From contig CM074515.1 of the NCBI GenBank assembly GCA_037379345.1, positions 5,270,001 to 5,334,000 on the forward strand: a DNA stretch of 64,000 nucleotides, in the 5' to 3' direction. Under the pieces are notes generated by a model. The model saw nothing but the letters and a program-made list of their open reading frames with translations, had not been told where the DNA came from and ran no database searches. The translations under genes were made by a program, and so were the position numbers. This document shows, in pieces, positions 587 through 63,993 of this stretch. The number at the start of each line of letters is the position of its first letter. The stretch's first letter is position 1. Source of the DNA: Perna viridis (Eukaryota).

Positions 587-3500
587 GTGCTAGCTTGTAT
601 GTTGTATCGTATGTTGAACTTTGCATACACCCTATCACAAGGATTTAAACCGCCAGAAGCCTATGGAGCAGGGCCGCCACTAGGCTTGAACAACTCAACG
701 ACAGGTCTTACACAAGAAAAGGAAAAGACCGTACCACTTGGATTATTTGGACAACCGACAGAGACTGAAGTAAAGCTTAATGGACAACTTGTTAAGACAC
801 TACTAGATACTGGATCTACTGTATCAGCCATCAGTAATAGTTATTACAACACCCATATGAAGGCAACTAAACTTCAGAACATCAGCAGTTTGTTAGATAT
901 AGAATGTGCCGAAGGACAACAGCTACCGTATAGTGGATTTATAGAGGCAGAATTACAGCTTTTGAATCAGAACACCAACTACCCATGTGTACTACTTGTG
1001 GTACCTGACAGCCATTACAATGCACATGTACCTCTTCTACTTGGCACCAACATACTGCAGGTAATCCATGACAACATCAAAGAACATCATGGACAACGAT
1101 TTCTACAGTCCTGCGATATAACAACACCATGGTATCTGATCTTCCGATCAATTACACTTAGAGAAAGAGAATTGACACGCAACAACAACACCTTAGCGGT
1201 AGTGAAGAACGCTTCAATAACTCCTATTACCATCAAACCAAATACCAGTACACAGTTTCCTGCGTTCATTGATAAACAGATACCATATGGTCCAACTCCA
1301 GCCATGCTACATTCATCTGAACGTCAACCTAATTGGAAAGACTTAGAAGTGGAACCAGGTCTTATTGATTATCAATATGGCAGCACAAGAACCATCTTCA
1401 TACAGATTGCCAATGTGACAACTAGAACTATCACGATTCCACCGAAAGCAATTTTATGTGAATTACACCCAGTGTCTATCGAATACCAGAAAGATGTTTC
1501 AGCAGCTTCATCAATACCTGTTCTTGACCAAGTGAAGATAACCGAAAGCGACTTAACAGAAGATCAACTTCATGCAGGAGTTAACCTCATCAAGAAGTAT
1601 GAAGACATATTTGCCAAAGATGATAGAGATATTGGACATACTTCAGTGAAACACCGTATTGATCTTCATGATGACAAACCCTTTAAACAGAGGTATCGAC
1701 GAATACCAGCCACCATGTACGACGAGGTTAAGGAACATCTACGTCAACTTCTGAAAGCGGGAACTATTAGAACATCACACAGCCCGTGGGCATCTAATGT
1801 GGTACTTGTAAGGAAGAAAAGTGGAAAGCTTCGTCTTTGTGTAGACTACCGGCAACTGAACTTGACTACCAGGAAAGACAGCTATAGTTTACCAAGAATT
1901 GAAGAACTACTTGATTGCCTTGCTGGAAGTACTTTCTTCAGTACCATAGATTTGAAAAGTGGATACCACCAGATAGAAATCCTAGAAGAACACAAGGAAC
2001 GTACTGCCTTTACTGTTGGGCCGTTAGGATTCTATGAGTATAATAGAATGCCCTTTGGACTCACCAACTCCCCAGCAACATTCCAGAGAATGATGGAAGA
2101 GTGCTTGTCAGATATGAACCTTCGAATCTGTTGCATCTTTATCGATGATATAATCATCTTTGGACGATCTTACGAAGAGCAACTAGAAAACCTTCAACGT
2201 GTGTTCCAACGTCTCAGAGAAGCCAACCTGAAGCTTGCTCCTGACAAGTGTTCCTTTTTCAAACGCAAGGTCACTTATGTTGGACATGTAGTATCAGCTG
2301 AAGGGATAGAAATAGACCCAGAGAAGACATCCAAGGTTCACGACTGGCCGAAACCAACCAATCCTGAAGACATCAGACGATTTCTTGGCTTTGTTGGATA
2401 TTACCGCCGATTTATCAAAGGATTTTCCAAGATCAGCCAACCTTTGAGTGAGTTGATGCCGACACCAGGAACCAAGAAGTCCAAGGCAAAACAGCAGAAA
2501 CCATGGAATTGGGGTACTGAGCAAGACAAAGCGTTTGAGAAGCTCAAACATCACATGTTGACTGCACCAATACTTGGATATGCCATCAGCGACAGCCCAT
2601 ACGAACTTCATACAGACGCTTCTGGATTTGCTCTAGGGGCTGTTTTATACCAAAAACAGGAAGGTGTGAAGAGAGTGATAAGCTACGCTAGCAGGGGACT
2701 CACCAAAGCAGAGCGACGATACCCGCCACACAAATTAGAGTTCTTAGCGTTAAAGTGGGCAGTCTGCGACAAATTTAAAGAGTACCTTTGGGGCAGCAAG
2801 TTCACCGTCTTGACAGACAATAACCCCATGACGTATGTGCTGACAACAGCAAAGCTCGATGCTACTGGACACAGATGGCTGGCATCATTATCATCTTTTG
2901 ACTTCCAGATTCATTACCGTCCAGGCAGGAATAATGCAGATGCAGATGGACTTAGTAGGATACCACAGCAATTAGAAGGCACAGATTCTGACAAACGAGA
3001 GGTCATCTCTATCGAGTCTGTTCAGACCATTTGCAACTCCAACCTTCCCAGAGCATACATCGAGAGTTTGGCTGTCAACCCAGATGCACTACCTTCGCTG
3101 GAAGAAGAACTAACTGATGATGACATCATAAATTGGGCAGCTGTACAGTCAAAGGATCCAGTCATTCTACCATTTGTGAAGTATGTCACAGAAGGACGCA
3201 AACCTACATCAGATGAAGTTGGACCTACACCACTTTTGCGCCAGTTTGCTCACCTTGCTGTTAAGAACGGCGTGCTTTACAGAGATGTCATGATTGGAGA
3301 CGACAGGAAATCTCAGCTGGTACTACCATCTGCACATGTTAGTGTTATACTTGAATCACTCCACGACGACATGGGCCATCCAGGCAAGGACAGGACGATG
3401 TCGCTGGTCCGTGACAGATTTTACTGGCCTGGTATGGATAAGGATGTGGAGAATTGGATACAACAGTGCGGAAGATGCATAAGACGAAAAACACCTACCA

Positions 3501-4969
3501 ATCAGAGAGCTCCACTCGTCAGCATTACGACACAGTTTCCCCTTCAGCTGGTGTGCATGGATTACTTAAAGCTAGAGCGTTCCAAAGAAGGATTCCAGGA
3601 CGTTTTGGTTATCACGGATCATTTCACCAGATACGCTCAAGCAATCCCAACGAAGAATCAGACTGCTCGAACAACAGCACAAGTTCTTTTTGACAATTTC
3701 ATCCTACATTATGGTATTCCTGAGAAGATCCACTCTGACCAAGGCGGATGCTTCGAAAGTAACATCATCAAAGAACTTAGTCGTCTGATTGGAATGAAGA
3801 AATCCAGAACAACAGCATACCATCCGATGGGGAATGGGATGTGCGAGCGCTTCAATCGTACCCTCATCAACATGCTCGGAACATTGGAACAACATCAGAA
3901 GTCTAATTGGAAGGCGTATATATCACCTTTAGTTCACGCCTACAACTGCACACAACATGAGACCACTGGAGTTTCACCATACTTCTTGATGTTCGGGAGG
4001 AATCCTAGACTTCCAATCGACCTAGCATTTGGCTTGCGGAAGGAAACCAAGTTGCCAACCATGAAGTATGTGAAAGATCTACGTGACAGGTTATCACACG
4101 CTTACCAACTTGCAGCTGAAGCATCCAAGAAAGCTCAAGCCACACAGAAAAGGAACTACGATCAACGTGTCAGAGGTGCAGCCATCCAGAAAGGAGACAG
4201 AGTCCTTGTCAAGATAGTTGTATTTGACGGAAGGCACAAATTAGCAGATAAATGGGAGGATGTGCCATATGTGGTGTTAGACCAGCCAAATCCAGACATT
4301 TCTGTGTTTGAAGTCATCAGAGAGGACAGAGAAGGATGTGTAAAGAGACTCAACAGGAACTTACTGTTGCCTGTTGGATTTATTAGACCATCAGTAGACG
4401 ATTCATCAGTACAGACACAAAAGACTAGACCACAACCGAAACCCAGGACACGTAAACAGACAACAGCTGAGAGACATGACACTGCAGATAAGTCTTCAGA
4501 TGAATCTTCGGACGAGTCTTTTGACAGTTTTGAAGTGTTTCACCATGCACTGGATACAGAAGACGGTGAATCCACACTCACTGAGGAATCTACTGTAGAT
4601 GAGCCAGTCCAAAATGTTTCAATTCAGTCTGGGGACGCCCATGCTGAAACGGAGGTAGTAGTTGATGATGCTGATCCACAGCAGAACACACCTGTTGATG
4701 TCGAGCATACTGAAACACCAGATACACCTCCAGTACCTGCCAGGAGATCTATGAGGGACAGACGACCACCTGCGTGGATATCTTCTGGGCAGTACGATAT
4801 GTCAGCTGTTGGGACTGTTCGTCCTGTACCACCTAGACAAACTCAGTCAACATCAGAGTGGCAGCAGAAGGCTGAATTTCTCACCAACTTAGCATCAACA
4901 CCTTTATTTAAAAGTTTACAGAAAGAGACAGCTTTAGCCATTTTGGATGCAGTTAATAGCCACCACTAG
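587..4969 (+). CDS. pol: Gypsy Pol polyprotein (protease, RT, RNase H, integrase); first in-frame ATG at 599
   Basis: LLDTGS protease; RT motifs LCVDYRQLN, MPFGL, FIDDI; RNase H HTDAS...LEFLA...TDN; integrase H-x4-H...C-x2-C, MDY/HSDQG/ERFN and a GPY/F-like KWEDVPY. 1460 codons with no stop. Confidence 0.97.
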   Translation: MLACMLYRMLNFAYTLSQGFKPPEAYGAGPPLGLNNSTTGLTQEKEKTVPLGLFGQPTETEVKLNGQLVKTLLDTGSTVSAISNSYYNTHMKATKLQNISSLLDIECAEGQQLPYSGFIEAELQLLNQNTNYPCVLLVVPDSHYNAHVPLLLGTNILQVIHDNIKEHHGQRFLQSCDITTPWYLIFRSITLRERELTRNNNTLAVVKNASITPITIKPNTSTQFPAFIDKQIPYGPTPAMLHSSERQPNWKDLEVEPGLIDYQYGSTRTIFIQIANVTTRTITIPPKAILCELHPVSIEYQKDVSAASSIPVLDQVKITESDLTEDQLHAGVNLIKKYEDIFAKDDRDIGHTSVKHRIDLHDDKPFKQRYRRIPATMYDEVKEHLRQLLKAGTIRTSHSPWASNVVLVRKKSGKLRLCVDYRQLNLTTRKDSYSLPRIEELLDCLAGSTFFSTIDLKSGYHQIEILEEHKERTAFTVGPLGFYEYNRMPFGLTNSPATFQRMMEECLSDMNLRICCIFIDDIIIFGRSYEEQLENLQRVFQRLREANLKLAPDKCSFFKRKVTYVGHVVSAEGIEIDPEKTSKVHDWPKPTNPEDIRRFLGFVGYYRRFIKGFSKISQPLSELMPTPGTKKSKAKQQKPWNWGTEQDKAFEKLKHHMLTAPILGYAISDSPYELHTDASGFALGAVLYQKQEGVKRVISYASRGLTKAERRYPPHKLEFLALKWAVCDKFKEYLWGSKFTVLTDNNPMTYVLTTAKLDATGHRWLASLSSFDFQIHYRPGRNNADADGLSRIPQQLEGTDSDKREVISIESVQTICNSNLPRAYIESLAVNPDALPSLEEELTDDDIINWAAVQSKDPVILPFVKYVTEGRKPTSDEVGPTPLLRQFAHLAVKNGVLYRDVMIGDDRKSQLVLPSAHVSVILESLHDDMGHPGKDRTMSLVRDRFYWPGMDKDVENWIQQCGRCIRRKTPTNQRAPLVSITTQFPLQLVCMDYLKLERSKEGFQDVLVITDHFTRYAQAIPTKNQTARTTAQVLFDNFILHYGIPEKIHSDQGGCFESNIIKELSRLIGMKKSRTTAYHPMGNGMCERFNRTLINMLGTLEQHQKSNWKAYISPLVHAYNCTQHETTGVSPYFLMFGRNPRLPIDLAFGLRKETKLPTMKYVKDLRDRLSHAYQLAAEASKKAQATQKRNYDQRVRGAAIQKGDRVLVKIVVFDGRHKLADKWEDVPYVVLDQPNPDISVFEVIREDREGCVKRLNRNLLLPVGFIRPSVDDSSVQTQKTRPQPKPRTRKQTTAERHDTADKSSDESSDESFDSFEVFHHALDTEDGESTLTEESTVDEPVQNVSIQSGDAHAETEVVVDDADPQQNTPVDVEHTETPDTPPVPARRSMRDRRPPAWISSGQYDMSAVGTVRPVPPRQTQSTSEWQQKAEFLTNLASTPLFKSLQKETALAILDAVNSHH
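644..687 (+). promoter_or_regulatory. -1 programmed ribosomal frameshift signal (gag-pol junction remnant)
   Basis: Slippery heptamer T TTA AAC (644-650), 6-nt spacer, then stem AAGCCTA (657-663) / TAGGCTT (681-687) extended by TGG/CCA. The 0-frame stops at TAG 681-683; the -1 frame is pol. Confidence 0.85.
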
Positions 4970-8746: not shown

Positions 8747-9893
8747 ATGTCCACGACTTGTCTATAATGCAAGATGGTCTTTACAAGAAGGTATAATATG
8801 AAACGTCATTTTAGGAAAACTCATGTATACCAAGCTTTAATTGATGTACCCCTTCGGAGAGAAACCAGGTATTCTAATTCTAGACCATCGCAAGGATCAC
8901 TGCGTCCATCACGCTACAAGAATCATGCAGACAGACCAATGCAGTCCACATACGCATCCTGTCCAGCAACAGACAACCTTAGAAAGACAGAATCGATGCA
9001 AACTGGTTTATCGGACTACGGTACTTTAATGACAGAACTACACCAATATGCTTTGAGAAAAGAAAAAAACCAAGATACTTTGATGAATGGACTACGCCAA
9101 GACCCTTATACTTCGATGGAAGGGCTACGCCAATAGATCCAGGATGAAACTCAAGAAAGCTTGCCCAAGGACCAAGCTGACGAAAACTTTTTCATACACC
9201 CGACAGATGATCCCCTTGTTTTCGACGTACCCAAAGGATACTTGGACGACCATTTCATGCCGTGGGCCCATCCCTTTACCAGTGTCATAGCAGGACCCAC
9301 CGGAAGTTGAAAAAACAATGTTTGTACGTCGATTCGTACAAAACTTGAAACACATGATGATGCCTAGACCCGATCGAATGACGTGGTGCTACGACGTGTA
9401 CCAGACCATTTATGGAACCATGGAGAATGTCGACTTTGTACAAGGACTCCCCGACCTTGACACCTTGGATCCCAGAGAGAGACACTTACTTATTCTAGAC
9501 AATATGATGAATTCGGTCACCGAATCTATCTCTCATCTCTTCACGAAATATTCTCACCATAAAAATATAAGTGTCATTTTGCTGGTTCAGAATCTGTTCA
9601 ACAAAAACAAGTATCACAGAACCATCAGTCTGAATGCCCATTACCTGGTTCATATTAAAAATACCAGAGACATATCACAGGCTATGACCATGGCCCAACA
9701 AATGTTCTCAAAAAAGACAAACTACTTCATGAAATCGTACGAGTATGCCACTGCCAAACCCCACGGATATTTATTGATCGACATGGAACAGGGCACTCCC
9801 AACAACTTGAGATTGAGAAGAAACATTTTCCCATGGGATATTCAGGATGTGTTCTTGGAGATGCAAAAGGATGTGTGGTCACTTCGTGAATGA
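8747..9893 (+). pseudogene. Polinton/adintovirus-type A32/FtsK-like DNA-packaging ATPase with an N-terminal C2H2 zinc finger, disrupted
   Basis: HPFTSVIAGPTGS[G]KT Walker A, broken by TGA and a +1 frameshift at 9308-9317; HLLILDNMM Walker B; FTKYSHHKNISVILLVQNLF; RTISLNAHY. The same frame upstream carries C-L-*-C-KMVF-TRRYNMKRH-FRKTH, with stops at 8765 and 9134. Confidence 0.88.
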
Positions 9894-42557: not shown

Positions 42558-44282
42558 TTTTTAGCTCACCTGGCCGAAGACCATGTGAGCTATTGCCATC
42601 AATTGGCGTCTGTTTTCGTTGTCATTGTCGTCATTAACAATTTTTCGAAACTCTTCTCCTCCGACACTACTTGACCAAATAGAACCAAACTTGGTATGAA
42701 TGTTTCGTGAGGTATCAACTTGGTATGAAGGTTCCTTGGGGTACCCTGCATTGAAATGATGTTTTTTTGATCAGTCGAAAAACATGACTGCCGTTACTAA
42801 AAATAGAACATAGTGGTCAGACAGTATTTTTTTTCTGCATATATATCCACAACCATAAGGTTTAGCCAAATTCTTACACAAGCAAATGTGTTCAGCATGA
42901 TGAGGTCTATCTGTGGTCAAAATTTCGTTTTAATCTGTTAAGCCATGTTGGAGTCATTGCCCTTTTTTTGTATTTTTTTTTTGCTGTTTTTAATGTTATT
43001 TCTTTAAAAAATCTTTGAAACTACTGGACTAATCAGAACCAAAATTGGTATGGAGGTTTCCTTAGGGTGTTTTGCATGTGTTCTGATGTAGGGATTTAGT
43101 TTATATCTTTATAACCATAAGGTTTGGTCAATTCTGACAGGGTTGAAGTATTCAGCATGATGAGATCTATCTTTGGTCCAATTTTCATTTTAAACTGTTA
43201 AGCCATATTAGAGTTATTACCCTTTTTTTTTTGTTTTTCCCCTTATTTTTATGTTATGTCTTTCAAAAATCTTCTACCCTGACACTACTTGACCAATCAG
43301 AACCAAATTTGGTATGAATGTTCCTTACTATGTTCTGCATAGAACTGATGTGGGGGCTTATGATCCGTCGAAAAACATGGCCACCATTACAATAAATAGA
43401 ATGTAGGATTCAGACAGAAGTTTTTAGCAAGTATCACCAATATCAATAGGTTTAGCCGATTTTTTCAATTGCTGAAGCCCCGTGCAGGTCAGGGCGTCAA
43501 AAGAATAGGCCTGCAGCAGCGCTAAGCTGTCGTAAAAGGCAACTAAATAGTGCTCAGAAACCTAGCCGGGGCTAGGCGGTCTGCCCACAGACCAACTGGG
43601 ATGTGTGCCCCAGATGGTTAAATGGGGTACCCCTGGCATGTTACATGCTGGTGTTGTCAGGCTATAATACGGAAAACCTGACCGCAAACCATAGTGGTGC
43701 ACCATGTTGGGAAAGATGTCGCGTTCCTCGCATGTTAAAGAACCCTGCTGTGGTCTTCGATAGGAGAAGGAACCCTTACACTCCGCCACAGGAGGCTAAA
43801 TTGCCTGACCTTACCCATCCCTCCTTTTTGCTAGTGGCAATCAAAATTTGTCAACCCTATTATCCTTGTGTCCCATCCCTTTTTTCATTTCATCATTTCA
43901 TGTTCATTTTATCATGTTCATCGTCTGAATATAGCTGAAATATTGCTGCTCGGACGTTAAACAATCAATCAATCAATCAATTGCTGAAATGATCCTCATT
44001 ATAAAGCTTACAAAAGTCTGCATTGGGTCAAAGTTGTCAGATGACTCCTTGTTAGAGTTGTTGCCCTTGAAAGGTGGAAAATGTTTTTAGTAGTTTTGAG
44101 TTAATATCTTCAGAACTATAATAGATAAAAAGTAACTCATTTGATCAAATGATCCTTATGATAAATACTACCAAATTCCTCTTTGAGTCAAATTGTCAGA
44201 CAACTTTTTATTAGAGTTATTGCTCTTGAATGGCAAAAATATTAGCAGGTGAGCAATTCAGGCTCCTGGGAGCGTTTTGTTT
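42558..44282 (+). mobile_element. Helentron-associated non-autonomous element (HINE/pearl-like), interrupted by a SINE
   Basis: 5' T-run plus subTIR GCTCACCTG, short GTC microsatellite, internal ~300-bp repeats, right subTIR CAGGTGAGC and hairpin GGCTCCTGGGAGC before a T-run. Confidence 0.8.
43477..43980 (+). mobile_element. Structured SINE-like retroposon with a Meta-domain-like core and a (CAAT)n tail
   Basis: TSD (TCAA)TTGCTGAA at 43465-43476 and 43977-43988; GCAYGTTAAAGAACC core; homologous to 63516-63993. Confidence 0.88.
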
Positions 44283-45542: not shown

Positions 45543-46736
45543 TTTTTTTAGCTCACCTGGCCAAAGGCCAGGTGAGCTATTGCCATCATTTGGCATCCGT
45601 CGTCGTTGTCGTCCATCGTCGTCGTTAACAATTACACAGAATTCTTCTCCTCTGAAACTACTTGACTAATTAGAACCAAACTTGGTATGAATGTTTCTTG
45701 GGGTATCCTGCATCGAACTGATGAGGGAATTTTTGATCTGTTGAAAAACATGGCCGCCTTTACTAAAAATAGAACGTAGGGGTCAGACAGTAGTTTTTCA
45801 AATATATCTCCTAAACCGTTAGGTTTCGCCAAATTCTTTGTATAGCTGACTATGACTACAAAAATCTTCAGGGATAAAAGTTGTCAGACCATTCCTTGTA
45901 AGAGTTATTGCCCTATTATAGTTAAATTCTGACATAGGTAAAAGTATTAAGCATGATGATCTCTGGTCAAATTTTGGTTTTAATCCGTTAAGCCATGTTA
46001 GAGTAATTGCCCTTTTTCAACGATTTTTGCTATTTTTAATGTTATTTCTTTAAAAAATCTTGACACTACTTGACCAATTGAAACCAAACTTGGTATGAAT
46101 GTTCCTTGGGGTATCCTGCATAGAACTGATGTTTTTTGGTTTTTTGGGGGGAGTTGTGACTTGCACTGTTTCGAAAATAGGAATAATAAAAGGGACAGAT
46201 CAACAATTTTCTAGATGTTCAAACAATAACCAGTAAGAGTGAATGCCAAAGGCCATGTGAGCTATTGCCATCACTTGGCGTCCGTCATCAACAATTTTTC
46301 AAAACTCTGCTCTTCTGACACTACTAGACTAATTTGAACCAAACTTGATATGAATGTTCCTTGGGATATTCTGCATAGAACTGAGGTGGAGATTTTTCAA
46401 ACTGTTGAAAAACATGGCCGCCATTACTAAAAATAGAACATAGGGGTCAGACAGTAATTTTTCGCATGTATCTCCAAAACCGTTAGGTTTCGCCAAATTC
46501 TTTCTATAGCTGAAATGATCTATATTATTAGGACTACAAAAATCTTCAGGGATAAAAGTTGTCAGACCATTCCTTGTAAGAGTTATTGCCCTTGAAAAGG
46601 AAAAAAATGACATTTTTTTTACAGTTTTCAGCTAATATCTTAAAAACTATGGTAGAAATTCTTCTTAAATTTACTGCCCTTGAAAGACAAAACTAAACCA
46701 GGTGAGCAATTCAGACTCCTGGGAGCCTCTTGTTTT
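45543..46736 (+). mobile_element. Second HINE-like element, with an internal restart near 46245
   Basis: TTTTAGCTCACCTGGCCAAAGGCCAGGTGAGC 5' stem-loop, (CGT)n, right end CAGGTGAGCAATTCAGACTCCTGGGAGCCTCTTGTTTT. Confidence 0.82.
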
Positions 46737-50452: not shown

Positions 50453-51128
50453 GTGGATTTCTACTATCCCATAGCATCAACAACGATTAGATTGTCCGCA
50501 ACAGTAGTGAAAATAGCATTAAACCAGACTTTGGATGATTTTGTTTCTGCAAGTGTTACTTCAGAAAAGGACGATAATGTCGGTTTATCAATGCATTCCG
50601 TTCTTTCTTTAAGTTCACAACAAATTTCCAATATCGAACCAGAGAATGGGTATTCTTGCCATTGTATGGATTAGCAGACGGAAATTTTTACACTATACAC
50701 GTACCAGCACTTGCCTGTATCAGTGTGGGTTTTATATCAGCAGTTGCTATTCTTGCCTATTCCTTCACTCATCAGAAAGTTACAACGTTTTTCAGTTGGA
50801 CTGCAAGTGAGAGATTCGTGGTCTATATGGCTGTATGTGACGCTTTATTTAACACGGTACATTTTAGTGATCATTTTCATATCGTGTTAACAAAGCAACA
50901 TCCAGCACCAACACTGTGTGTTCTCTATGGATTTATGTTGGCAGAGTTAATTTCAGCACAAAATTTGATGGTGAAAGTCATTGCCATTAATGTCTTTGTA
51001 ACCGTGTTCCGAAAGAAACTGAAGTTTGGTCGGTGGGACCATCGTTTACGTGTTTATAGTTTCGGACAACCTGCCATTGGTGCATTGGTTGCGGTTATCC
51101 TGGATACTCTTGGACCAAACGGATCCTT
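50453..51128 (+). pseudogene. 7TM receptor-like gene (cAMP-receptor/GCR1-like appearance), exon 1, frameshifted near 50653
   Basis: LPLYGL..GNFYTIHVPAL, FFSWTASERFVVYMAVCD, ~4 TM segments, GPNGS(F)|GTAAGT donor. The N-terminal part (50453-50652) is in a different frame. Confidence 0.7.
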
Positions 51129-51694
51129 GTAAGTTATCCTCTGTAGCTTATTTACTTTGATGTAAAAATCCCTAAAATCTATGATTTTGTGAAATTGAAG
51201 AAGACCCCGATGTAAAGAACACACGCACGATCGAGCCATATGCACGAGAAAAGACGCTTATGTATGTGAAATTTATTTAAAATGTAACAAACTTCATAAT
51301 GGAAGTGCACTGTAATCAAAAATATTATACCGTAAATCCCATTTTTACTGTAGACGGTTGATTTCTTTTTACTTTCAGCAGAAGATGCCTTAAAAAACAA
51401 AAACTTTAAAAAATTATAAAATTAAAAGCTAACCATTGTTGAATTGTGAGTTATAAACTAAGAGTCTTTCTGTAAAGATAAAAAAGAAACATGTCAAGTC
51501 ATGAATGGAATTTTTTCATATGTCGTAAAGTATCAACAGTATTTGGTAAATGCTCTTAAAAATGACAATTTTTTAACGAAAAAATAAGTTACAGCTATAG
51601 CCCTTTAGCATCCCAAAATATATCAATTAGGCAAGAAGCAATCTATGAGTAAATACATGATTGTATATTATATCTAATTAAAATTCTAGCACAC

Positions 51695-53390
51695 TTATAT
51701 AGAAAATATGGGTGACAGGAGACAACCTTGGCGTATTTCTTGCATGTTCATCGAAGGATGGTGAGAGTTTTGAATTTTGGAAGACTTGGCATTTGTTTTT
51801 TTTTGTAGGGTCCTTAGATAATCTTTACAATTTGACAGGAATTCCACAGTGTCTTTTTTTAGCGCTAATGCCTTCTTGAAGTCCACGAAGTTTATGTGGA
51901 GGACTGATTGCCATTTCATTTACTCCTCGATGATGACCCGTAATGTGGCAGTTTGCTCAATACATCATCGACCGCATCGGAATCTGAAGAGTAGCTGAAT
52001 TCCTCTCCAGTTTTTGGCAGTTGCTCTGGTCGCCCTTCTTTGGAAGCATAATGATGAAGCTTAAACTCCACTCCTCATGGATTTCCACTGTTTCCCAGAT
52101 AGCTCATGCAAGGTGCTGTAGGGCCCCGTGCAGGTCCGAGTGTCAAAAGAATATGTGAAATATTGCTGCTTGGGCGTTTAACTCCAACAATCAATCAATC
52201 ATTCGAGATGTTGTAGGTTTTTTCCGGGTTGATCTTCAAGACCTCAGGTGGAAATTTGGTTCGGTCCTGGTGTTTTTCCAGTCCTTATTTGTAAGGCTTT
52301 TATTATTTCATCCTTCGAGATTGGGCCAGTATCAACATTAAGGTCTTCTTCAGGAGGTAGATCAGGAGCATCTGATATATCTTCTCCATTTAAAAGTGGT
52401 AGATCTAGGTTTGTTATCACATTGCCATCTATGTCTTTCACTGATTTTGATGTCTTGGTCTTTCTATCTGCCAGTTGTCGTGTGATGGTGTACGCAGTTT
52501 TTGTGTCCTTTCTGCCCATTGCATTCTTAACTTTTGAAGCAAGCTTGTTGATATAGGTTCTTTTATCCTGTCTAGTCCTTTCTCTTTACTTCTTTCCTAA
52601 TGCTTATATGTTAACCATTCTTTCTGCAATCTTGTCTTGACCTGGCCAAGTTATATCTTGACAGACCTACGTTTCTCAGTTGTCTCGATTGTATCGTTAG
52701 ATAACCATGGCTTATATTCCTTCTTTGAGAGTCGAAGTTCTTCTTGGCATGTGGTGTTATATGTGGCTTTTACTCTTTCCCATTGTTTGTCTACTGCGCC
52801 TCTTCCTTTTGTTATACTTTCGCCTTCTAATCTGATCTTGTCTAGTTGCCCTGGCTTTGTTGATCTTAAATTCAGCCACCACAAGATGATGATCGAATAA
52901 TATATCAGCACCCCGAGAAGCTCTAACATCTGCCATGCTCTTCCTCCATCTCCTGGCGACTGTGATGTGGTCTATCTGGTTTCAAGTTTTCATCTCTGGA
53001 GATACCCGGGTTGTTTTGTATATATCCTTGTGAGGTAGTCGGAATGTCGTACCTCCTATGACCAGATTGTTCTGGGGACAAAAAATCTGCATTCGAAGTT
53101 CTCCATTTTCGTTGATGTTACCCATGAGTTCTCCCTGTGTTATCTTTTCAAACTTTGGCATTCATGTCACCCGTTACAATCAAGATGCTCTAAGTGTTGT
53201 TAATCCTAGGGTTGCTTGGAGCTGGTTTTAAAACTCTTCTTTGTCTTCTTTCTCTGCTACGTTGGTAGGAGCGTAGCATTGAATGAGTGTTACTTTTTTT
53301 ATATTCGACATAAATCTTGCCACGATAAATCTTTCACTCACAGGATTCCTTTCGATGAATGATGTTGAGTGAGATTTCTACCAGCTGTCT
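51695..53390 (-). mobile_element. Decayed RTE-clade non-LTR retrotransposon (APE endonuclease plus RT fragments) in the receptor intron
   Basis: Minus-strand CYAPTN, GDMNAK, NLVIGG, QIDHIT, RGAD (endonuclease); INFVDFKKA and IRQGCLLSP (RT); many stops and deletions. Confidence 0.85.
52123..52200 (+). mobile_element. Internally deleted ~80-bp copy of the structured SINE
   Basis: Exact 5' head GCCCCGTGCAGGTCCGAGTGTCAAAAGAATA joined to the 3' tail TGAAATATTGCTGCT...CAATCAATC; diverged TSD-like flanks (14/18 match). Confidence 0.8.
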
Positions 53391-57270: not shown

Positions 57271-57433
57271 ATTGTTGCTTCCATTGATTTCCCTTTCACA
57301 TGAACAACAGCACAAAATAATGCAATATTAAAGTTTGAATTTTTCAATCTCAAACATTTTTATAACTACTTTGACGAATTTCAAATTTAATATAACTTTA
57401 GAATAAGAAATTATGTAATCGTTACTATTTTAG

Positions 57434-57866
57434 TTGCTACTTTAACGGCGTGAATGGACAGACTGCAAGTATATTATTCACTACAATACCGATGTTCGTT
57501 ATCCTTACGATAGTCATTATACTCTACATCTTCAGTTGGATCAGAATCTATCAAGAGACACGACAGTTAAGGAGATCGTTAGGGCCAGCAGCTAATGCCA
57601 AGACAGTTGCCCATAGGTCGGCCAGGACCATGTCACTATTTGTTACGGCATATCTTATCCAATGGTGGGCTTTAGGTCTTTATGGTATGTGGCAGCTAGT
57701 GGCTGAAGTGTCTCAATTGCTGTTTAACTTTGTAACGACATTTTCTAATATTGGCGGAATACTTAATGGGATTGTGTTCATTATTACAATGAGAAGAAAA
57801 CGTATCGATGGCAAATCTCGACAGTACGAAAAGTCGGTTAAGGACAAAGCTAATACCCAACTATAA
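57434..57866 (+). CDS. 7TM receptor-like gene, exon 2 (TM5-TM7 and stop)
   Basis: TTTTAG acceptor, in phase with the 51128 donor, giving GSF-CYFNGVNG; three TM helices; ARTMSLFVTAYLIQWW; NIGGILNGIVF. Confidence 0.8.
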
Positions 57867-58175: not shown

Positions 58176-61100
58176 ATACGACTTAGATTTTGGGTATGAG
58201 AAATCCAGTTTACACTTTGTGGACCTTTTGAAAACAGAATACCAAATAAATTCAAATTTTGGAAAACATGTTAAAAAACATTGATTCTTGCCTAGTTGTC
58301 ATAGTATTTATAAGCATATTCATTAATACAACAGCACTATAACAGCACAAGGCATTTTAGAACAGCAATATGTACAAAGGTACATGTAGCAACATTTAGG
58401 AAATTGGTTGCCTCATCAATGTACCAAGTTCAATAGAACTTCTATAAATAATGTTCTGTGAAATTACACATCCATGTAAATGTTTTCAAGAACATCAATT
58501 GTGATTATTGAACTAGTGACCTCATTTGCTCATGGGATGGGTAATGAATTAGCTTTATTACTTTCATGTAACTTATTCTTTATTGGCAAAAGGGTTAACA
58601 AAGTCCTTTTATGGCTTTGGTTAGCTCACCATGACTATTGGTCAAAGTTCTATGTTGGAAATATGAAAAAAAAATGGAATTGCAAAGAAATGAATATTTT
58701 GTTTATTTAGGGGTATAAATACACCAGCAAGAGTTATGAATATTGCTTTTTGTTCCCCGCCGCAATGGGAAAGGGGACTTGAATACTGGTGTCTGTGCTT
58801 GTGTCAATCAGAACCTTGTAGATACAATACCTCAGAGATCGCTGTATGGATTTTGTTCAAACTTTGTAGGATGTGTAATCCCCATATGTAGTTAATCATA
58901 TATAACCGTCATTTTGATTCAGGAAATTTTACAGGAGTTATAGAACTTCGTTGATTTTTTACTTGGTTTACTCTAGAAACATGTTGTGGACGCAACTCCT
59001 CGGAAACTGCTGAACAGATTTTGTTCACACTGTGTAGGGTTGTTAGTCACCATGTCTAGTTGATCGTATATAACCACTATTTTGATTCAACAAATTTTAC
59101 AGGAGTTATGGGACTTGGTTGATTTTCTACTTGGTTAAGTATAAGAACACTTTGTGGACGCAACTGCTCAGAAACCACTGAATAAATTATCCACGGATTG
59201 AATTTCATATTTTTTTTGACTAGCTAAATTTAGTAAATACTGAAAGTTTACACTCACTAAATTTGAAGTTTTTTTGGTTATTTCTGGACTTTTCATACAT
59301 GACATATAGAATTCTACTAGCAAATTTTAGCAAGTGGAAATAATTTCTACTAGCAAAATTAAATTTCAATTTACATTAATCAAGTATTTCCCCTTAAAGT
59401 TTTGCTCAAAGTTTGTAGGATTGTTATTATCCATTTAGTTACTTTTGAATTTTACAGGAGGTAGGGGCTTTTAAATGTCACCCTTTTTTGCGGCTTGGTT
59501 CCATTAAGATTGACGGTTCTTTCAGCTTTTGGCCTATTATTAAAAAAAGATTTAAGAGAGAAAGGGGTTACATTTTTGATATTTTAAAACAAAAATGTTG
59601 GTGTGCTTTTCATGGATAGAGCATCTTGTTATAGTACATTTAGACGCATCCATTTAAAGTGTTGGTCTTGGTTGTGTATTTGTTCTGAGATCAAATTATT
59701 TTTTCTGTATGCTTCATGCTGACATACATTATGTGCTGTTACATCAAATTAAATGATTGCTACTTGTACATCTTAATCCTACATGTACTACATTTAGATT
59801 TTGTTTGTACACCATTTAATCCTTTAAAACTTAAGAACTTCTTTGGTGCTAATACATAATCATGTCGTGTTTTATTGTAAATTGATGAACTTTTACAATG
59901 TAATAATTATATGTTTAGTTTCCATTATTTGGTTGATTTGTCATATCCTATTATGATAACTAATCTGTCTTTTCCAAAGCTCTCCATTCAAATATGGTCC
60001 TTCTGGTCACGTCGTTACGGGAGATTTAACCATTATCGAAAACGAATCTCTACGTAATATCCTTTCTAAAGGTCCCAAGTACCGTGAACCACGCTCCATA
60101 AATTGGAATTATAACTTTAAAGTTCTTATGGATGCCGTCGAGGACTATGCAAGAAAATGGGTCAATGAGTGCCAATTTAAGTAGGTTAATGAGTGCCAAG
60201 GCTACATCAGTTTTCAAAGACCCCGATGTAGCAAAAACATTGTCTACTATACATGACAAATATGTTGTCGTACCAGCAGACAAAGCCCAAAACAACATTG
60301 TTTTTGTCTGCAAAACATTTTATATCCAATGTTTATTATCAGAGGTAGACGTAGAAAATAATAGCAGTGATAAGACCTATATTGCTACCACTCTCTCCAA
60401 AGAAGAGATTGTAGAAAACCATAAATCTGTGCTATCCACTTTTGGTCTCTCTACCAAGGACGATGATTGTGATTTACCGTCTATGTACTGGATTCCTAAA
60501 CTTCACAAGAATCCATACAAACAACGTTTCATAGCTGGATCTGCAAAATGTACCACCAAACTTCTTTCAAAACGTTTAACTTCTATACTCACAACTGTCA
60601 AAGAGGGTCTGCAGTCTTACCACAACACTTGTTACTCCCGTAGTGGTATTAATTCAATGTGGATCCTGAAAAATCCGAAAGATCTTTTGGAGACAATCAG
60701 TTCAAGACTATTATCTGAATATAATAGCATTAAAACCTATGATTTTTCAACATTGTATACTTCTATTTTCCATACTCAGTTAAAATCCCGACTTAAAAAC
60801 ATACACCGTTCTTTTTCCAAAAAGATGGTACATCTAGATACAAATATATAGTTCTTGGTAGAGATTCCTCATACTTTGTAAGAAATAATTCCAAATCATC
60901 TTCCAAATATACAGAGGAAGATGTTTACAAAATGCTGGAATTTTTATCGAAAACATATTTGTCTAGTGTTGTGGACGTGTTTTTCAACAAACGGTCGGCA
61001 TTCCAATGGGAACAAATTGTGCTCCTTTACTTGGTGACCTATTTCTTTACTCCTATGAGGCTGACTTTATAGCTGATTTGATCAAATAGAAAGAATATCG

Positions 61101-63265
61101 TTTGGCTAGATCCTTCAATCTCAGTTTCCGCTATATAGATGACGTATTATCTTTAAACAATCCTAATTTCGGGGATTTGATACAAAAGTACTTGAGATAA
61201 AGGATACTACAGACACTGTGAAGTCAGCCTCATATCTTGACCTACACTTAGAAATCGATGGTAAAGGAAAACTATTGACCAAACTTTACGACAAACGTGA
61301 TGACTTTTCATTCAGAATTGTCAACTTTCCTTTTACCTGTGGCATCATCCCTTCGGCTCCTGCGTATGGAGTGTTCATATCACAACTCATACGTTATGCC
61401 AGAGCTTGCCAAAACTACGTAGACTTTTTGTATCGCTCTAGAAGTCTAACAAATAGGCTTCTGGAACAGGGTTATGTTGCTACAAGATTGAGATTAACGG
61501 TCGTCATCATGAACTCGTGGATCGTTATGACGTATCCATCTGTACCATGAAAACTGATTTATTCAACGGGTCATAGTTATCCTTTCCTTGTTTGTCTACC
61601 CCGGACTTGACTTTTTATGAGCAACTCGGCAGGTGTTTCTAGAAAAGCAGAGGACGCTTACCCTACCGGTGCACCTGGTCCATGCTCCCAGTTTTTAGAA
61701 TAGGCCGAGCTCATTTGCTTTTGTTACTTTGTATGTATGATTTTAGTTACTTTATGTTCTTTGTTGTGTGTGTCTGTTTTCCATGTCTGGTCTTTGTCCC
61801 TGGATTGCATTCTTTTGATTACCGCTATAACCTTGGTTCCCTTCATTACTCTTCCAAGGAACAACAGTAGAAACTTTCATTAACAACGAGTATTGTTTAA
61901 AATTATATATTAAATATTTGTAGGAAGTTAAAGGCGACAAGAAATTAACTGTCATCCTGTTTGTTACATAAAAGATCTTGTTAATTTTTTTGTTAATTAC
62001 TTTAGTTACTATTAATATAACGTTAATTTTTTTTTAAGAATCTCTGGTTATTCTTGGAAGAAGAAATCTTGTTGACCTCATTACAGATATTCCTACTTAG
62101 CCTTTGTAAGTTATCTTAAATTAACTTTTTACTACACTTCTTTCAAGACTAATTTTAATTCCTCCACTCTTCACAGTGGATACTTTGTGAGTGGTCACAA
62201 TGTCCTAACAACCATGGTGTCATCATTTTATAACATGATTGTAGTTTTATCTTTTTACATGATAACATATATTTAATGATTTTTAAAGTTTAAAAGCATT
62301 TGAGGTGTATACAAAAAAAAAGTGTTGGAATGAAGCAATTTTATCTCAGTTATCTTAGTGGGTACACAGTGGAGGAAAATGGTGACTCCACTGTGAAAAT
62401 TGGAGAAATTATTTTTTTAGGTTGATGGTAGTATACATGTACATTAAGGAAATGGCTATCCAAATATTAATGTACATATTTGAATGTCAGAACAAAGCCA
62501 GATTCTCTCTGCTTTAAACAAACTTTGTATCAATTCTTTATTTGAAATTTTATTCAATTGTTTATTACTTAGGGAACAAAATGTACATAACGTAGTGGAG
62601 GTTTCAAGAACATGTCTGCTTTCTTTTGCATATTGACTGGCTATGCTGAACTTTTTTTACTGTTGGCCAATACAAGTTGAAAATGGCTTTTCTAAAAATC
62701 AGAACCAGATGTGCGGAATGGTTTTTGTAGATTATTGTACAGTTAAACCTTATTTGGTCCAGTATTCATAGAAATTTTAATGGATCAAATTCTATTCAAA
62801 AGAAGAATGTTTTGCACATTCATGTGTGTTGTAAGTTTTGTTTTACTTGGTACACACATGAATGTTATAGTTATAAGACCATGTATTTTACAAGTAAAAT
62901 ACCTACATGTAGTTAGCTGACTAGCTAGCAAAGTAATTATACCTCTGTAAACAAAGTTTTGGGAGTTATAGGTTTCAATCTGTATGTTTGTCCCTCACTC
63001 TGTTGGAAATATTCTCTAAACAGTTTGCAGCATTACTATGAAACTTTGTGGAATGTAATGTAATCACATGGAGATGTACATACTGTTGGGAATTTATGTT
63101 GAACAAAAGATGTATAAATGATGGCTGTTGAACTTAAACACTTATTCAGCAAATCTTGGTCTCATGTGTTGACTGCAATTTCTCCTGACAACTTTCAGGA
63201 TTGTTATAAAAATTAATTTTGTGTTATATTATTATATTGGGATATGCATGTTGTCAGGAATTTAT
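58176..63265 (+). repeat. Segmental duplication, copy 2 (includes a 1.9-kb PLE insertion)
   Basis: Colinear with 17529-21110. Confidence 0.93.
59978..61853 (+). mobile_element. Penelope-like element, Naiad-type (RT at C-terminus, no C-terminal GIY-YIG), 5'-truncated and disrupted
   Basis: SPFKYGPSGHVVTGDL, KGPKYREP, PADKAQNN, YWIPKLHK, YDFSTLY, GIPMGTNCAP, FRYIDDV, YDKRDDF. TSD TTCCAA at 59972-59977 and 61852-61857; empty site at ~19660. Confidence 0.92.
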
Positions 63266-63515: not shown

Positions 63516-63993
63516 GATTGATTGATTGATTGATTGTTGGGGTTTAACGCCCGAGCAGCTATATTTCAGCTATATTCAGGATAAAATGAACATGAATGAT
63601 GATGAAATGAAACAAGGGATGGGACACAAGGGCACTAGAAAAAGGGGGGTTGGGTAGGGTCGGGCAATTTAGCCTCCTGTGGCGGAGCGCAGAGGTCCCT
63701 ACTTCTATCGAATACCACAACACGGTTCTTTAACGTGCGGGGAACGTAGCATCTTTCCCAACACGGTACCTCACTATGGTTTGCGATCAGGTTTTCTATA
63801 TTATAGCCTGACAATCCCAGCATGTAACACGCCAGGGGTACCCCATTCCACCTCCTGGGGCACACATCCCAGTTGCTCTGTAGACAGAGCGCCTAGCCGC
63901 CGGCTAGGTTTCTGGGCACTATTTAGTCGCCTTTTACGACAAGCTTAGCGCTGCTGCAGGCCTATTCTTTTGACACCCGGACCTGCACGGGGC
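63516..63993 (-). mobile_element. Full-length copy of the structured SINE-like retroposon
   Basis: Reverse complement of 43477-43980; TSD ATACCCA at 63509-63515 and 63994-64000; (GATT)n tail. Confidence 0.9.

Follow-up and report, generated by a model that had tools for sequence, protein, structure and literature searches.

A covarying double-pseudoknot RNA at the head of a Perna viridis SINE, shared with LINEs and viruses: a candidate exoribonuclease-resistant RNA

THE ELEMENT IN THE WINDOW

The window, i.e., the whole stretch of 64,000 nucleotides of Perna viridis DNA analyzed here, contains three copies of a SINE. The preliminary description had placed their starts at GCCCCGTGCAGGTC, and these starts are present at 43477 (+), 52123 (+), and 63993 (-), each with the same G. 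The features are as follows.

43465..43476, + strand: left target-site duplication (TSD), 12 bp, identical to 43977-43988
43477..43976, + strand: full-length LP-SINE copy, about 9% diverged from its nearest relatives
43477..43554, + strand: structured head (LP / Nimb-17-homology head), a double pseudoknot
43479..43494, + strand: stem A, 43479-82 with 43491-94; one pair is broken in this copy
43483 and 43484-90, + strand: stem A loop, a conserved U followed by the 5' strand of pseudoknot stem B
43502-07 and 43508-14, + strand: conserved AGAAUA linker, then the 3' strand of the 7-bp stem B
43515..43528, + strand: stem C, 43515-17 with 43526-28
43518-24, + strand: loop of stem C, holding the 5' strand of stem D (second pseudoknot)
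43530..43554, + strand: hairpin of invariant sequence, UCG-UAARAGG-CGA (with G>A here), followed by CUAA and the stem D 3' strand (43548-54)
43555..43921, + strand: body; contains TTGGGAAAG
43922..43976, + strand: 3' stem-loop followed by TTAAA and a (CAAT)n tail, resembling in build the tail of an intact APE-RT-RNase H LINE of the same genome
43977..43988, + strand: right TSD
52123..52201, + strand: internally deleted copy of 79 nt, in which head nt 1-31 run directly into the final ~46 nt, most of the structure gone
63518..63993, - strand: second near-full copy, head intact; left TSD truncated at the end of the window

Several details of this picture differ from the first account. The element had been extended to 43980, but the right TSD begins at 43977, so that the last 4 bases of that interval belong to the TSD; the 52123 copy is internally deleted; and the proposed covariation of one hairpin (GGTCTG/CAGACC versus GCTCTG/CAGAGC) is not family covariation, the GGTCTG/CAGACC variant being private to the 43477 copy (1 of the 84 copies that could be scored, out of 121 examined). 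The 63993 copy is 82% identical to the 43477 copy, and its head scores 81.6 bits with covariance model R1, from whose training set it was excluded. The 43477 head is itself degenerate, with C15>A and G66>A breaking two pairs. A related repeat near 46297-46656 does not carry the insertion. In the accessible part of the 2016 supplement to PMC4758252, TTGGGAAAG of the SINE body also occurs in oyster CORE-SINE sequences.

A FAMILY WITH A SHARP 5' BOUNDARY

The element is an ~510-nt non-autonomous, non-coding retroposon with TSDs and a (CAAT)n tail and without a tRNA head. Exact matches in the 723-Mb genome number 8,107 for an 18-nt head core and 15,238 for an 18-nt tail motif, with none for the reversed control of either; the family therefore numbers at least 8,107 copies as counted by exact head-core matches. 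The excess of tail motifs over head cores is attributable to a head-loop variant in about one-quarter of the copies, to 5' truncation, and to another family that apparently shares the last ~45 nt. The variant lies at family position 60 (window 43535), where ~25% of copies carry the loop UAUAAGG rather than UAAAAGG and form a subfamily missed by the exact core count. Hundreds of RNA reads match the SINE solely over its final ~45 nt and then run into other sequence (L018:1958-1959), which suggests a second family with the same ~45-nt tail. Median divergence from the family consensus is 4% (121 copies).

How fixed is the 5' end? Boundary statistics were taken from 80 tiles of 10 kb picked as copy-rich. 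In these tiles, 225 matches begin in the first 30 nt, 198 of them at nt 1-3; of the 265 matches that reach the tail, 123 are full length (start at nt 1-4), and 5' truncation is thus common. An exact TSD of 9-16 bp (threshold, at least 9 bp) was found for 74 of 178 head copies, and in 68 of these 74 the junction lies within 1 nt of G1. The claim of a fixed 5' end is therefore sound to about ±1 nt for full-length copies, with 5'-truncated copies also frequent, but the claim of a single invariant G is confined to the three window copies: across 182 copies the consensus base is present in only 74% at nt 1 (G) and 84% at nt 2 (C), versus at least 94% for nt 3-5. The ragged junction leans toward purines (G alone in 47 and A in 5 of the 74 TSD-resolved copies), and where an extra base precedes nt 1 it is G in 3 of 5 cases (P = 0.02, n = 5). 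The first base was also compared with subfamily; 3 of 12 columns reached P of ~0.03, which is not significant after correction.

The preliminary description had seen no clear Pol III A box and had kept a remodeled tRNA T-arm or internal promoter as an alternative. ARAGORN finds no tRNA in the window, the consensus has no B box, and the sole A-box-like match is at position 141, outside the head. None of the 182 upstream flanks contains a tRNA, a B-box match occurs in 1 of the 182, and there are no tRNA-headed longer copies among the 182. A tRNA-derived SINE (SINE2) was rejected on these grounds, and a tRNA remnant is not supported. In 23 of the 182 copies the 5' flank is common to that copy and one to three others, and we read these shared flanks as duplications or nested insertions. 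At one locus (G000:C1:9835986-9837515; L413), four SINE copies lie head-to-tail with a period of 504 bp and identical junctions; this array is a tandem duplication rather than a set of separate insertions.

THE HEAD IS A COVARYING RNA FOLD

The first ~80 nt of the SINE form a covarying RNA structure with two pseudoknots. The strand order is A5' - U - B5' - A3' - AGAAUA - B3' - C5' - D5' - C3' - NUG - UCG UAARAGG CGA - CUAA - D3', and the two pseudoknots, together with the invariant UCG-UAARAGG-CGA-CUAA core, are kept across 19 families. Two pairings proposed at the outset, the H-type pseudoknot CCCG/CGGG, whose loop GCAGGUC pairs with GGCCUGC, and the pairing GCGCTA/TAGTGC, are real and covary across families. 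The multi-way junction proposed with them is not: GCGCUA sits in the loop of a 3- to 4-bp stem that had been missed, and thus its pairing makes a second pseudoknot.

Relatives were sought with a 17-nt core pattern, which gave 122 stretches in 1 of the 64 parts of a metagenome collection (~9,300 estimated in total), 9 matches in viral contigs, and 25 in prokaryotic assemblies. Family representatives were chosen with a filter, namely, a descriptor of stems A and B. This descriptor passes 41 of 64 own-genome, 40 of 118 metagenome, and 4 of 23 prokaryotic instances; among viral instances it passes 6 of the 7 with the full core (including CTAA) and 0 of the 44 without CTAA; and it passes 82 of 2,730 shuffles. 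The passes fell into 22 clusters, of which 19 representatives were used (L047, L152, and L163 were dropped). In these 19, cognate versus non-cognate pairing was 3.00 versus 2.54 for stem A, 6.68 versus 4.21 (of 7) for stem B, 3.58 versus 1.96 for stem C, and 4.32 versus 3.23 for stem D. The observed pairing was reached by 0, 0, 0, and 3 of 20,000 permutations for A, B, C, and D, respectively, counts that are not probabilities because the rows are related. The pairing levels of stems A and B are also partly circular, since both stems are in the representative filter; those of C and D are not.

A MAFFT alignment of 20 rows gave a consistent picture, with 90.5% of cells paired and 59 double changes, a result matched by 0 of 500 shuffles; slid controls paired at 33 to 50%. 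In this alignment, changes on both sides occur in 7 of 7 pairs of stem B and 2 of 3 pairs of stem C. With the covariance model, held-out heads score 32 to 82 bits, and core-only matches in other viral contigs reach at most 29 bits. The core hairpin is a different matter. It is invariant by search design, and a relaxed scan for it in viral contigs returned 14 matches, namely, the 7 known loci and 7 without a pseudoknot (by eye); with no structured variant from that scan, the hairpin is without covariation support of its own.

Not every relative keeps the whole head. Of the 118 metagenome instances, 78 fail the stem A and B filter, many of them from families without the 5' pseudoknot. In the metagenome repeat families L095, L099, L117, L155, L160, L165, L167, and similar ones, AGAAUA and the 3' half of the head are kept and other sequence replaces the 5' pseudoknot. 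The 5' pseudoknot half of the head is not universal. Single-sequence folding without pseudoknots gives a weak signal (z of -1.1 to -2.2), and Rfam searches of the element (E ≤ 10), five viral loci (E ≤ 1), and three LINE loci returned chance-level matches or none.

LINES AND VIRUSES THAT CARRY THE HEAD

The shared sequence begins 0 to 2 nt before stem A both in the SINE family itself and in two metagenome families. In two host-like contigs of bacterial assemblies the head precedes a zinc-knuckle ORF1, and one of these contigs extends to a full two-ORF APE-RT-RNase H LINE. We take these LINEs to be of the Nimb/I group from their domain content. In P. viridis itself, the 30 of 49 matches and the 2 of 2 variant matches that were examined for a LINE with an LP head were all SINE copies. 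The ORF1 query did lead to a LINE family in the P. viridis genome (145 matches scored of 296 candidates), three copies of which are 6.05 kb long, have TSDs, and carry a 491-codon ORF1 and a 1,247-codon ORF2 with APE, RT, and RNase H domains. The tail of this LINE has a stem-loop like that of the SINE, followed by the same AACAATC repeat, with no alignable similarity beyond the repeat. From this tail architecture, we infer that the SINE is probably mobilized by the local LINE family.

The 5' end of the local LINE is a module different from the LP head (L404:701-890, G000:C8; also L406-L409 and L411). It has a C-run/G-run pairing, an 8-bp helix after GACUAA, and a loop UUGUCGU; both UUGUCGU and GACUAA are common to this module and the LP head. 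From its first base, the module fits the P1, P2, and P3 elements and the C-UAA linker of an HDV descriptor, with P1.1 absent in that register; by chance, the same descriptor also hits 3 of 7 other segments, and Rfam has no match for the module. It is possibly a sister fold of the LP head. The 5' untranslated region (UTR) downstream of the module shares short blocks with the LINE that bears the LP head, which suggests that the two 5' modules are interchangeable. A stretch similar to the local LINE module occurs in viral contig L436.

The head is also found in six contigs of five RNA viruses, and a seventh viral contig is invertebrate iridescent virus 6 (IIV-6). Of the RNA viruses, one is toti-like, three are tombus-like or similar, and the last is a contig that encodes a capsid and has a Peptidase_A21 domain; reference records exist for two of the five, Shuangao toti-like virus and Hubei tombus-like virus 21. 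In all five, the head is on the sense strand just past the last stop codon (by 7, 12, 25, 75, and 102 nt), within 3' ends of 137 to 251 nt, and one of them (contig L230) has a second, tandem copy that is cut by the contig end. In IIV-6, the head is intergenic between two same-strand ORFs, upstream of 209R. The viral heads differ from one another and from those of the retroposons in their paired strands, with pairing preserved, which argues against assembly chimeras. A search for relatives of two of the viral polymerases gave one new contig, which ends before the 3' UTR, and the phage collection gave no match to the head. Shuangao toti-like virus has a second short hairpin near its 3' end (L251:6850-6866), with a GUCGUAAAGAC loop region, that resembles a reduced copy of the core.

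We read the 25 core matches in prokaryotic contigs as host or assembly contamination, based on their contexts: in two cases a LINE ORF1 follows the match, and several matches are located at the ends of contigs or next to simple repeats. Bacterial and symbiont assemblies (L289, L295, L296, L305/L412, and others) contain animal-type retroelements with the head, including one full 6-kb LINE; these are likely host contamination.

Based on its covariation and its retention in RNA viruses, the head structure is selected at the RNA level. The set of carriers suggests that an RNA module has been exchanged among Nimb/RTE-type LINEs, SINEs, RNA viruses, and an iridovirus.

HOW MIGHT THE HEAD SET THE 5' END?

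The wider question is how promoter-less SINEs and LINEs come by full-length RNAs. The data above support one proposal of the preliminary description, namely, a SINE-like retroposon in which a structured RNA head, rather than a tRNA-derived Pol III promoter, defines the 5' end. Its further proposal, that the head is processed as a ribozyme, fares less well: the RNA-set end stands, and self-cleavage is possible but is not the best fit. What, then, might the RNA do? We tentatively favor, at somewhat less than even odds, the idea that the head fold acts as a candidate exoribonuclease-resistant RNA (xrRNA) that sets the 5' end of the SINE.

According to the accessible text of a 2021 review (PMC8374639), xrRNAs are pseudoknot-dependent 3' UTR elements, often in series, known only from viruses and not characterized in cellular retroelements. 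As far as PMC8374639 and PMC10520033 can be drawn on, the LP head is like the viral xrRNAs (flavivirus classes 1a/1b/2, Tombusviridae/Luteoviridae, and coremin) in its compact pseudoknots, in its sense-strand position at the start of the 3' UTR of positive-strand RNA and double-stranded RNA viruses, and in the tandem copy, and it differs from them in sequence, in secondary structure, and in its additional location at the 5' end of cellular retroelements. No Rfam xrRNA family matches it, and the head is unlike the coremin motif as shown in the accessible part of PMC10520033.

In the proposed mechanism, SINE copies are first transcribed within host transcripts, as reads on both strands show. After decapping or intron debranching, Xrn1/Xrn2 would degrade these RNAs 5' to 3' and stall 0 to 2 nt before stem A, leaving a stable RNA that starts at the head and would be made without a dedicated promoter. 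Judging by the shared tail architecture, the APE-RT-RNase H LINE of this genome would likely recognize the 3' stem-loop and (CAAT)n and insert the RNA by target-primed reverse transcription, the outcome of which would be the 9- to 16-bp TSDs and the sharp, slightly ragged 5' boundary seen in the genome. In viruses, the fold would be expected to leave behind a non-coding 3' RNA that is shielded from decay. We prefer this reading because an exonuclease block accounts for both the retroelement 5' boundary and the viral 3' UTR position with one activity: the five RNA viruses carry the head in a position that suits an xrRNA, one of them in tandem, and retroelement sequence begins just before stem A with two ragged bases. 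By simple reasoning, a stop of the reverse transcriptase would fall 3' of the fold and not 5' of it.

The RNA-seq data do not decide the matter. Two standard raw-read runs were mapped to the SINE, to which 7,305 and 7,683 reads map on both strands, and 199 and 316 reads cross nt 1 into dissimilar upstream flanks. Neither run shows a 5' start pile-up on the SINE (the LINE control is too shallow, at 70 to 90 reads), and the drop in first-bin depth is alike on both strands (0.58 to 0.68). Given the read-through, the lack of a pile-up, and the strand-alike drop, no discrete 5'-ended SINE RNA is seen, which counts against an exonuclease block, as do the purine-leaning junction letters, which are as expected from a reverse-transcribed cap. 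Sense reads outnumber antisense reads if the libraries are of the usual stranded type.

Could the head instead belong to an as yet undescribed class of self-cleaving ribozymes, possibly with a rearranged HDV-like fold, and cleave read-through RNA immediately 5' of stem A? We regard this as unlikely but as the first of the alternatives to be weighed. It would explain the retroelement 5' position as well as an exonuclease block does, and the double pseudoknot has invariant unpaired bases, including C-UAA just before the closing stem. In the customary naming of HDV helices, this C-UAA recalls the J4/2 strand. The local LINE, in the same slot, has the module described above, a partial fit to the HDV descriptor in which UUGUCGU and GACUAA recur as in the head, but that module lacks P1.1 in the relevant register and has no Rfam hit, and the descriptor is prone to chance hits. 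Several LINE clades use 5' ribozymes, according to the accessible text of PMC5786205. The early impression of a poor fit to HDV or hammerhead is borne out in the family consensus: the HDV descriptor has 0 hits with P1 starting in the first 40 nt, and the hammerhead core CTGANGA is absent on both strands. There is no Rfam ribozyme match, including to twister, twister-sister, pistol, and hatchet, at the thresholds given above for the element and the five viral loci. Also against cleavage, intact read-through reads are abundant, nt 1 is variable, and a cut at the head would, on reasoning, remove the 3' end of a linear RNA-virus genome. The viral ribozymes described in the accessible portion of PMC13725137 are for the most part either located in UTRs ahead of ORFs or arranged as close tandem pairs, which is unlike the position of the RNA-virus head at the start of the 3' UTR. 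An HDV-like ribozyme has been reported from Chilo iridescent virus (PMC8256844, in the part accessible) and may lie at or near the site of the IIV-6 head; the IIV-6 segment has 0 HDV-descriptor hits.

The 2016 work that described the head proposed a promoter (PMC4758252, accessible text). In that vein, the head could be an internal RNA polymerase II promoter in DNA, with the RNA fold as a second function, like Pr77 of L1Tc, and with the first G as a copied cap, a reading to which we would give a little less weight again than to a ribozyme. Cap copying by LINE reverse transcriptases is a known behavior, and the purine bias of the junction and the occasional extra G are in keeping with it, as are the mix of A and G at nt 1 in one metagenome family (A in 15 and G in 13 of 37) and the excess of sense reads, if the libraries are stranded as usual. 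A DNA promoter leaves unexplained the base-pair covariation and the retention of the head in RNA viruses without a DNA stage, and on these two grounds it would be insufficient by itself; nor is there a start pile-up in the RNA-seq data.

The least probable of the readings considered is that the fold recruits translation factors or ribosomes in the manner of a 3' cap-independent translation enhancer (CITE) and would serve viral translation, LINE ORF1, and docking of the SINE on ribosomes to capture LINE protein (3' CITEs and Alu-ribosome docking being the analogies); the 3' UTR site in tombus-like and toti-like viruses, the 5' UTR site before LINE ORF1, and the intergenic site between same-strand ORFs in IIV-6 would all suit it, but it leaves unexplained why unrelated retroelements start within 2 nt of the first stem.

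Returning to exonuclease resistance, a broader form of the proposal is that the LP head is an undescribed class of xrRNA (or a ribozyme) traded between animal retrotransposons and invertebrate viruses, which we consider a plausible possibility that falls short of an even chance.

RELATION TO KNOWN SYSTEMS

As a SINE, the element is unremarkable and belongs to a known kind. In mollusc LP-SINEs, the ~70-nt head is one that also occurs at the 5' ends of Nimb-17_LMi, I-3_DR, and RTE-9_CPB, and the authors proposed a promoter, drew a parallel with trypanosome Pr77, and called for experiments (Matetovici et al. 2016; PMC4758252, accessible text). Among the LP-SINEs and pectinoid MESC SINEs of that article, scallop copies carry, by eye, the CGTAAGAGGCGACTAA core and the same layout, and thus we assign the element as a new family of this described kind, by eye against the scallop copies and not by alignment to Sgl_LP, Hdi_LP, or Nimb-17. 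Variable-length TSDs, a tandem-repeat tail, and the lack of a 5' tRNA are traits shared with the LP-SINEs in the accessible text of PMC4758252; those tabulated there are ~255 nt long, versus ~510 nt here. The accessible text gives no structure for the head and does not mention viruses.

The HDV-like ribozymes of R2, L1Tc/Ingi (Pr77), and RTE are alike in being ~80-nt double pseudoknots exactly at a LINE 5' end with C-UAA before the last helix, but they have a nested P1/P2/P3/P1.1 arrangement, whereas the LP head consists of two tandem pseudoknots, is negative with the descriptor and Rfam, and has a first base that is not fixed. The bipartite non-autonomous LINEs (RIME, NARTc, and RTE-derived), as described in the accessible text of PMC5786205, likewise combine LINE-type 5' and 3' ends with no ORF. 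They differ in that no LINE bearing the LP head was found in the SINE's own genome and in that the SINE tail resembles the local LINE tail in structure only.

An open-literature search found the LP head only in PMC4758252 and found no report of head structure, viral occurrence, or an xrRNA at a retrotransposon 5' end; its scope excluded subscription papers, Repbase/Dfam notes, preprint supplements, and the primary papers on HDV-like ribozymes in RTE and Chilo iridescent virus. Within that scope, the LP head is apparently an undescribed, real, and widespread structured RNA shared with viruses. It has carried the label of a putative promoter since 2016, and the same covarying fold in RNA-virus 3' UTRs shows that it has an RNA-level function. 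If the head is an xrRNA, it would be the first cellular one, present in thousands of copies per genome, and would answer the question of the xrRNA review about cellular genomes; it would also be a new compact RNA-stabilizing fold and would provide a third route to a retroposon 5' end, in which host decay stalls on read-through RNA, with neither a promoter nor self-cleavage. If the head cleaves, it would be a new ribozyme class.

OTHER FEATURES OF THE WINDOW

A ~3.5-kb repeat is present in two copies of 90 to 94% identity (17529-21081 and 58176-63231), with shorter terminal pieces elsewhere; a 249-codon frame within it (60102-60848) gave no above-threshold match in Pfam. An open frame of 1,460 codons at 587-4966 (+) is, by eye, like an LTR-retrotransposon polyprotein, and a 200-codon frame at 9291-9890 (+) presumably resembles a Polinton-type packaging ATPase. 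Frames at 50578-51129 and 57402-57863 (+) are, by eye, like pieces of seven-transmembrane receptor genes.
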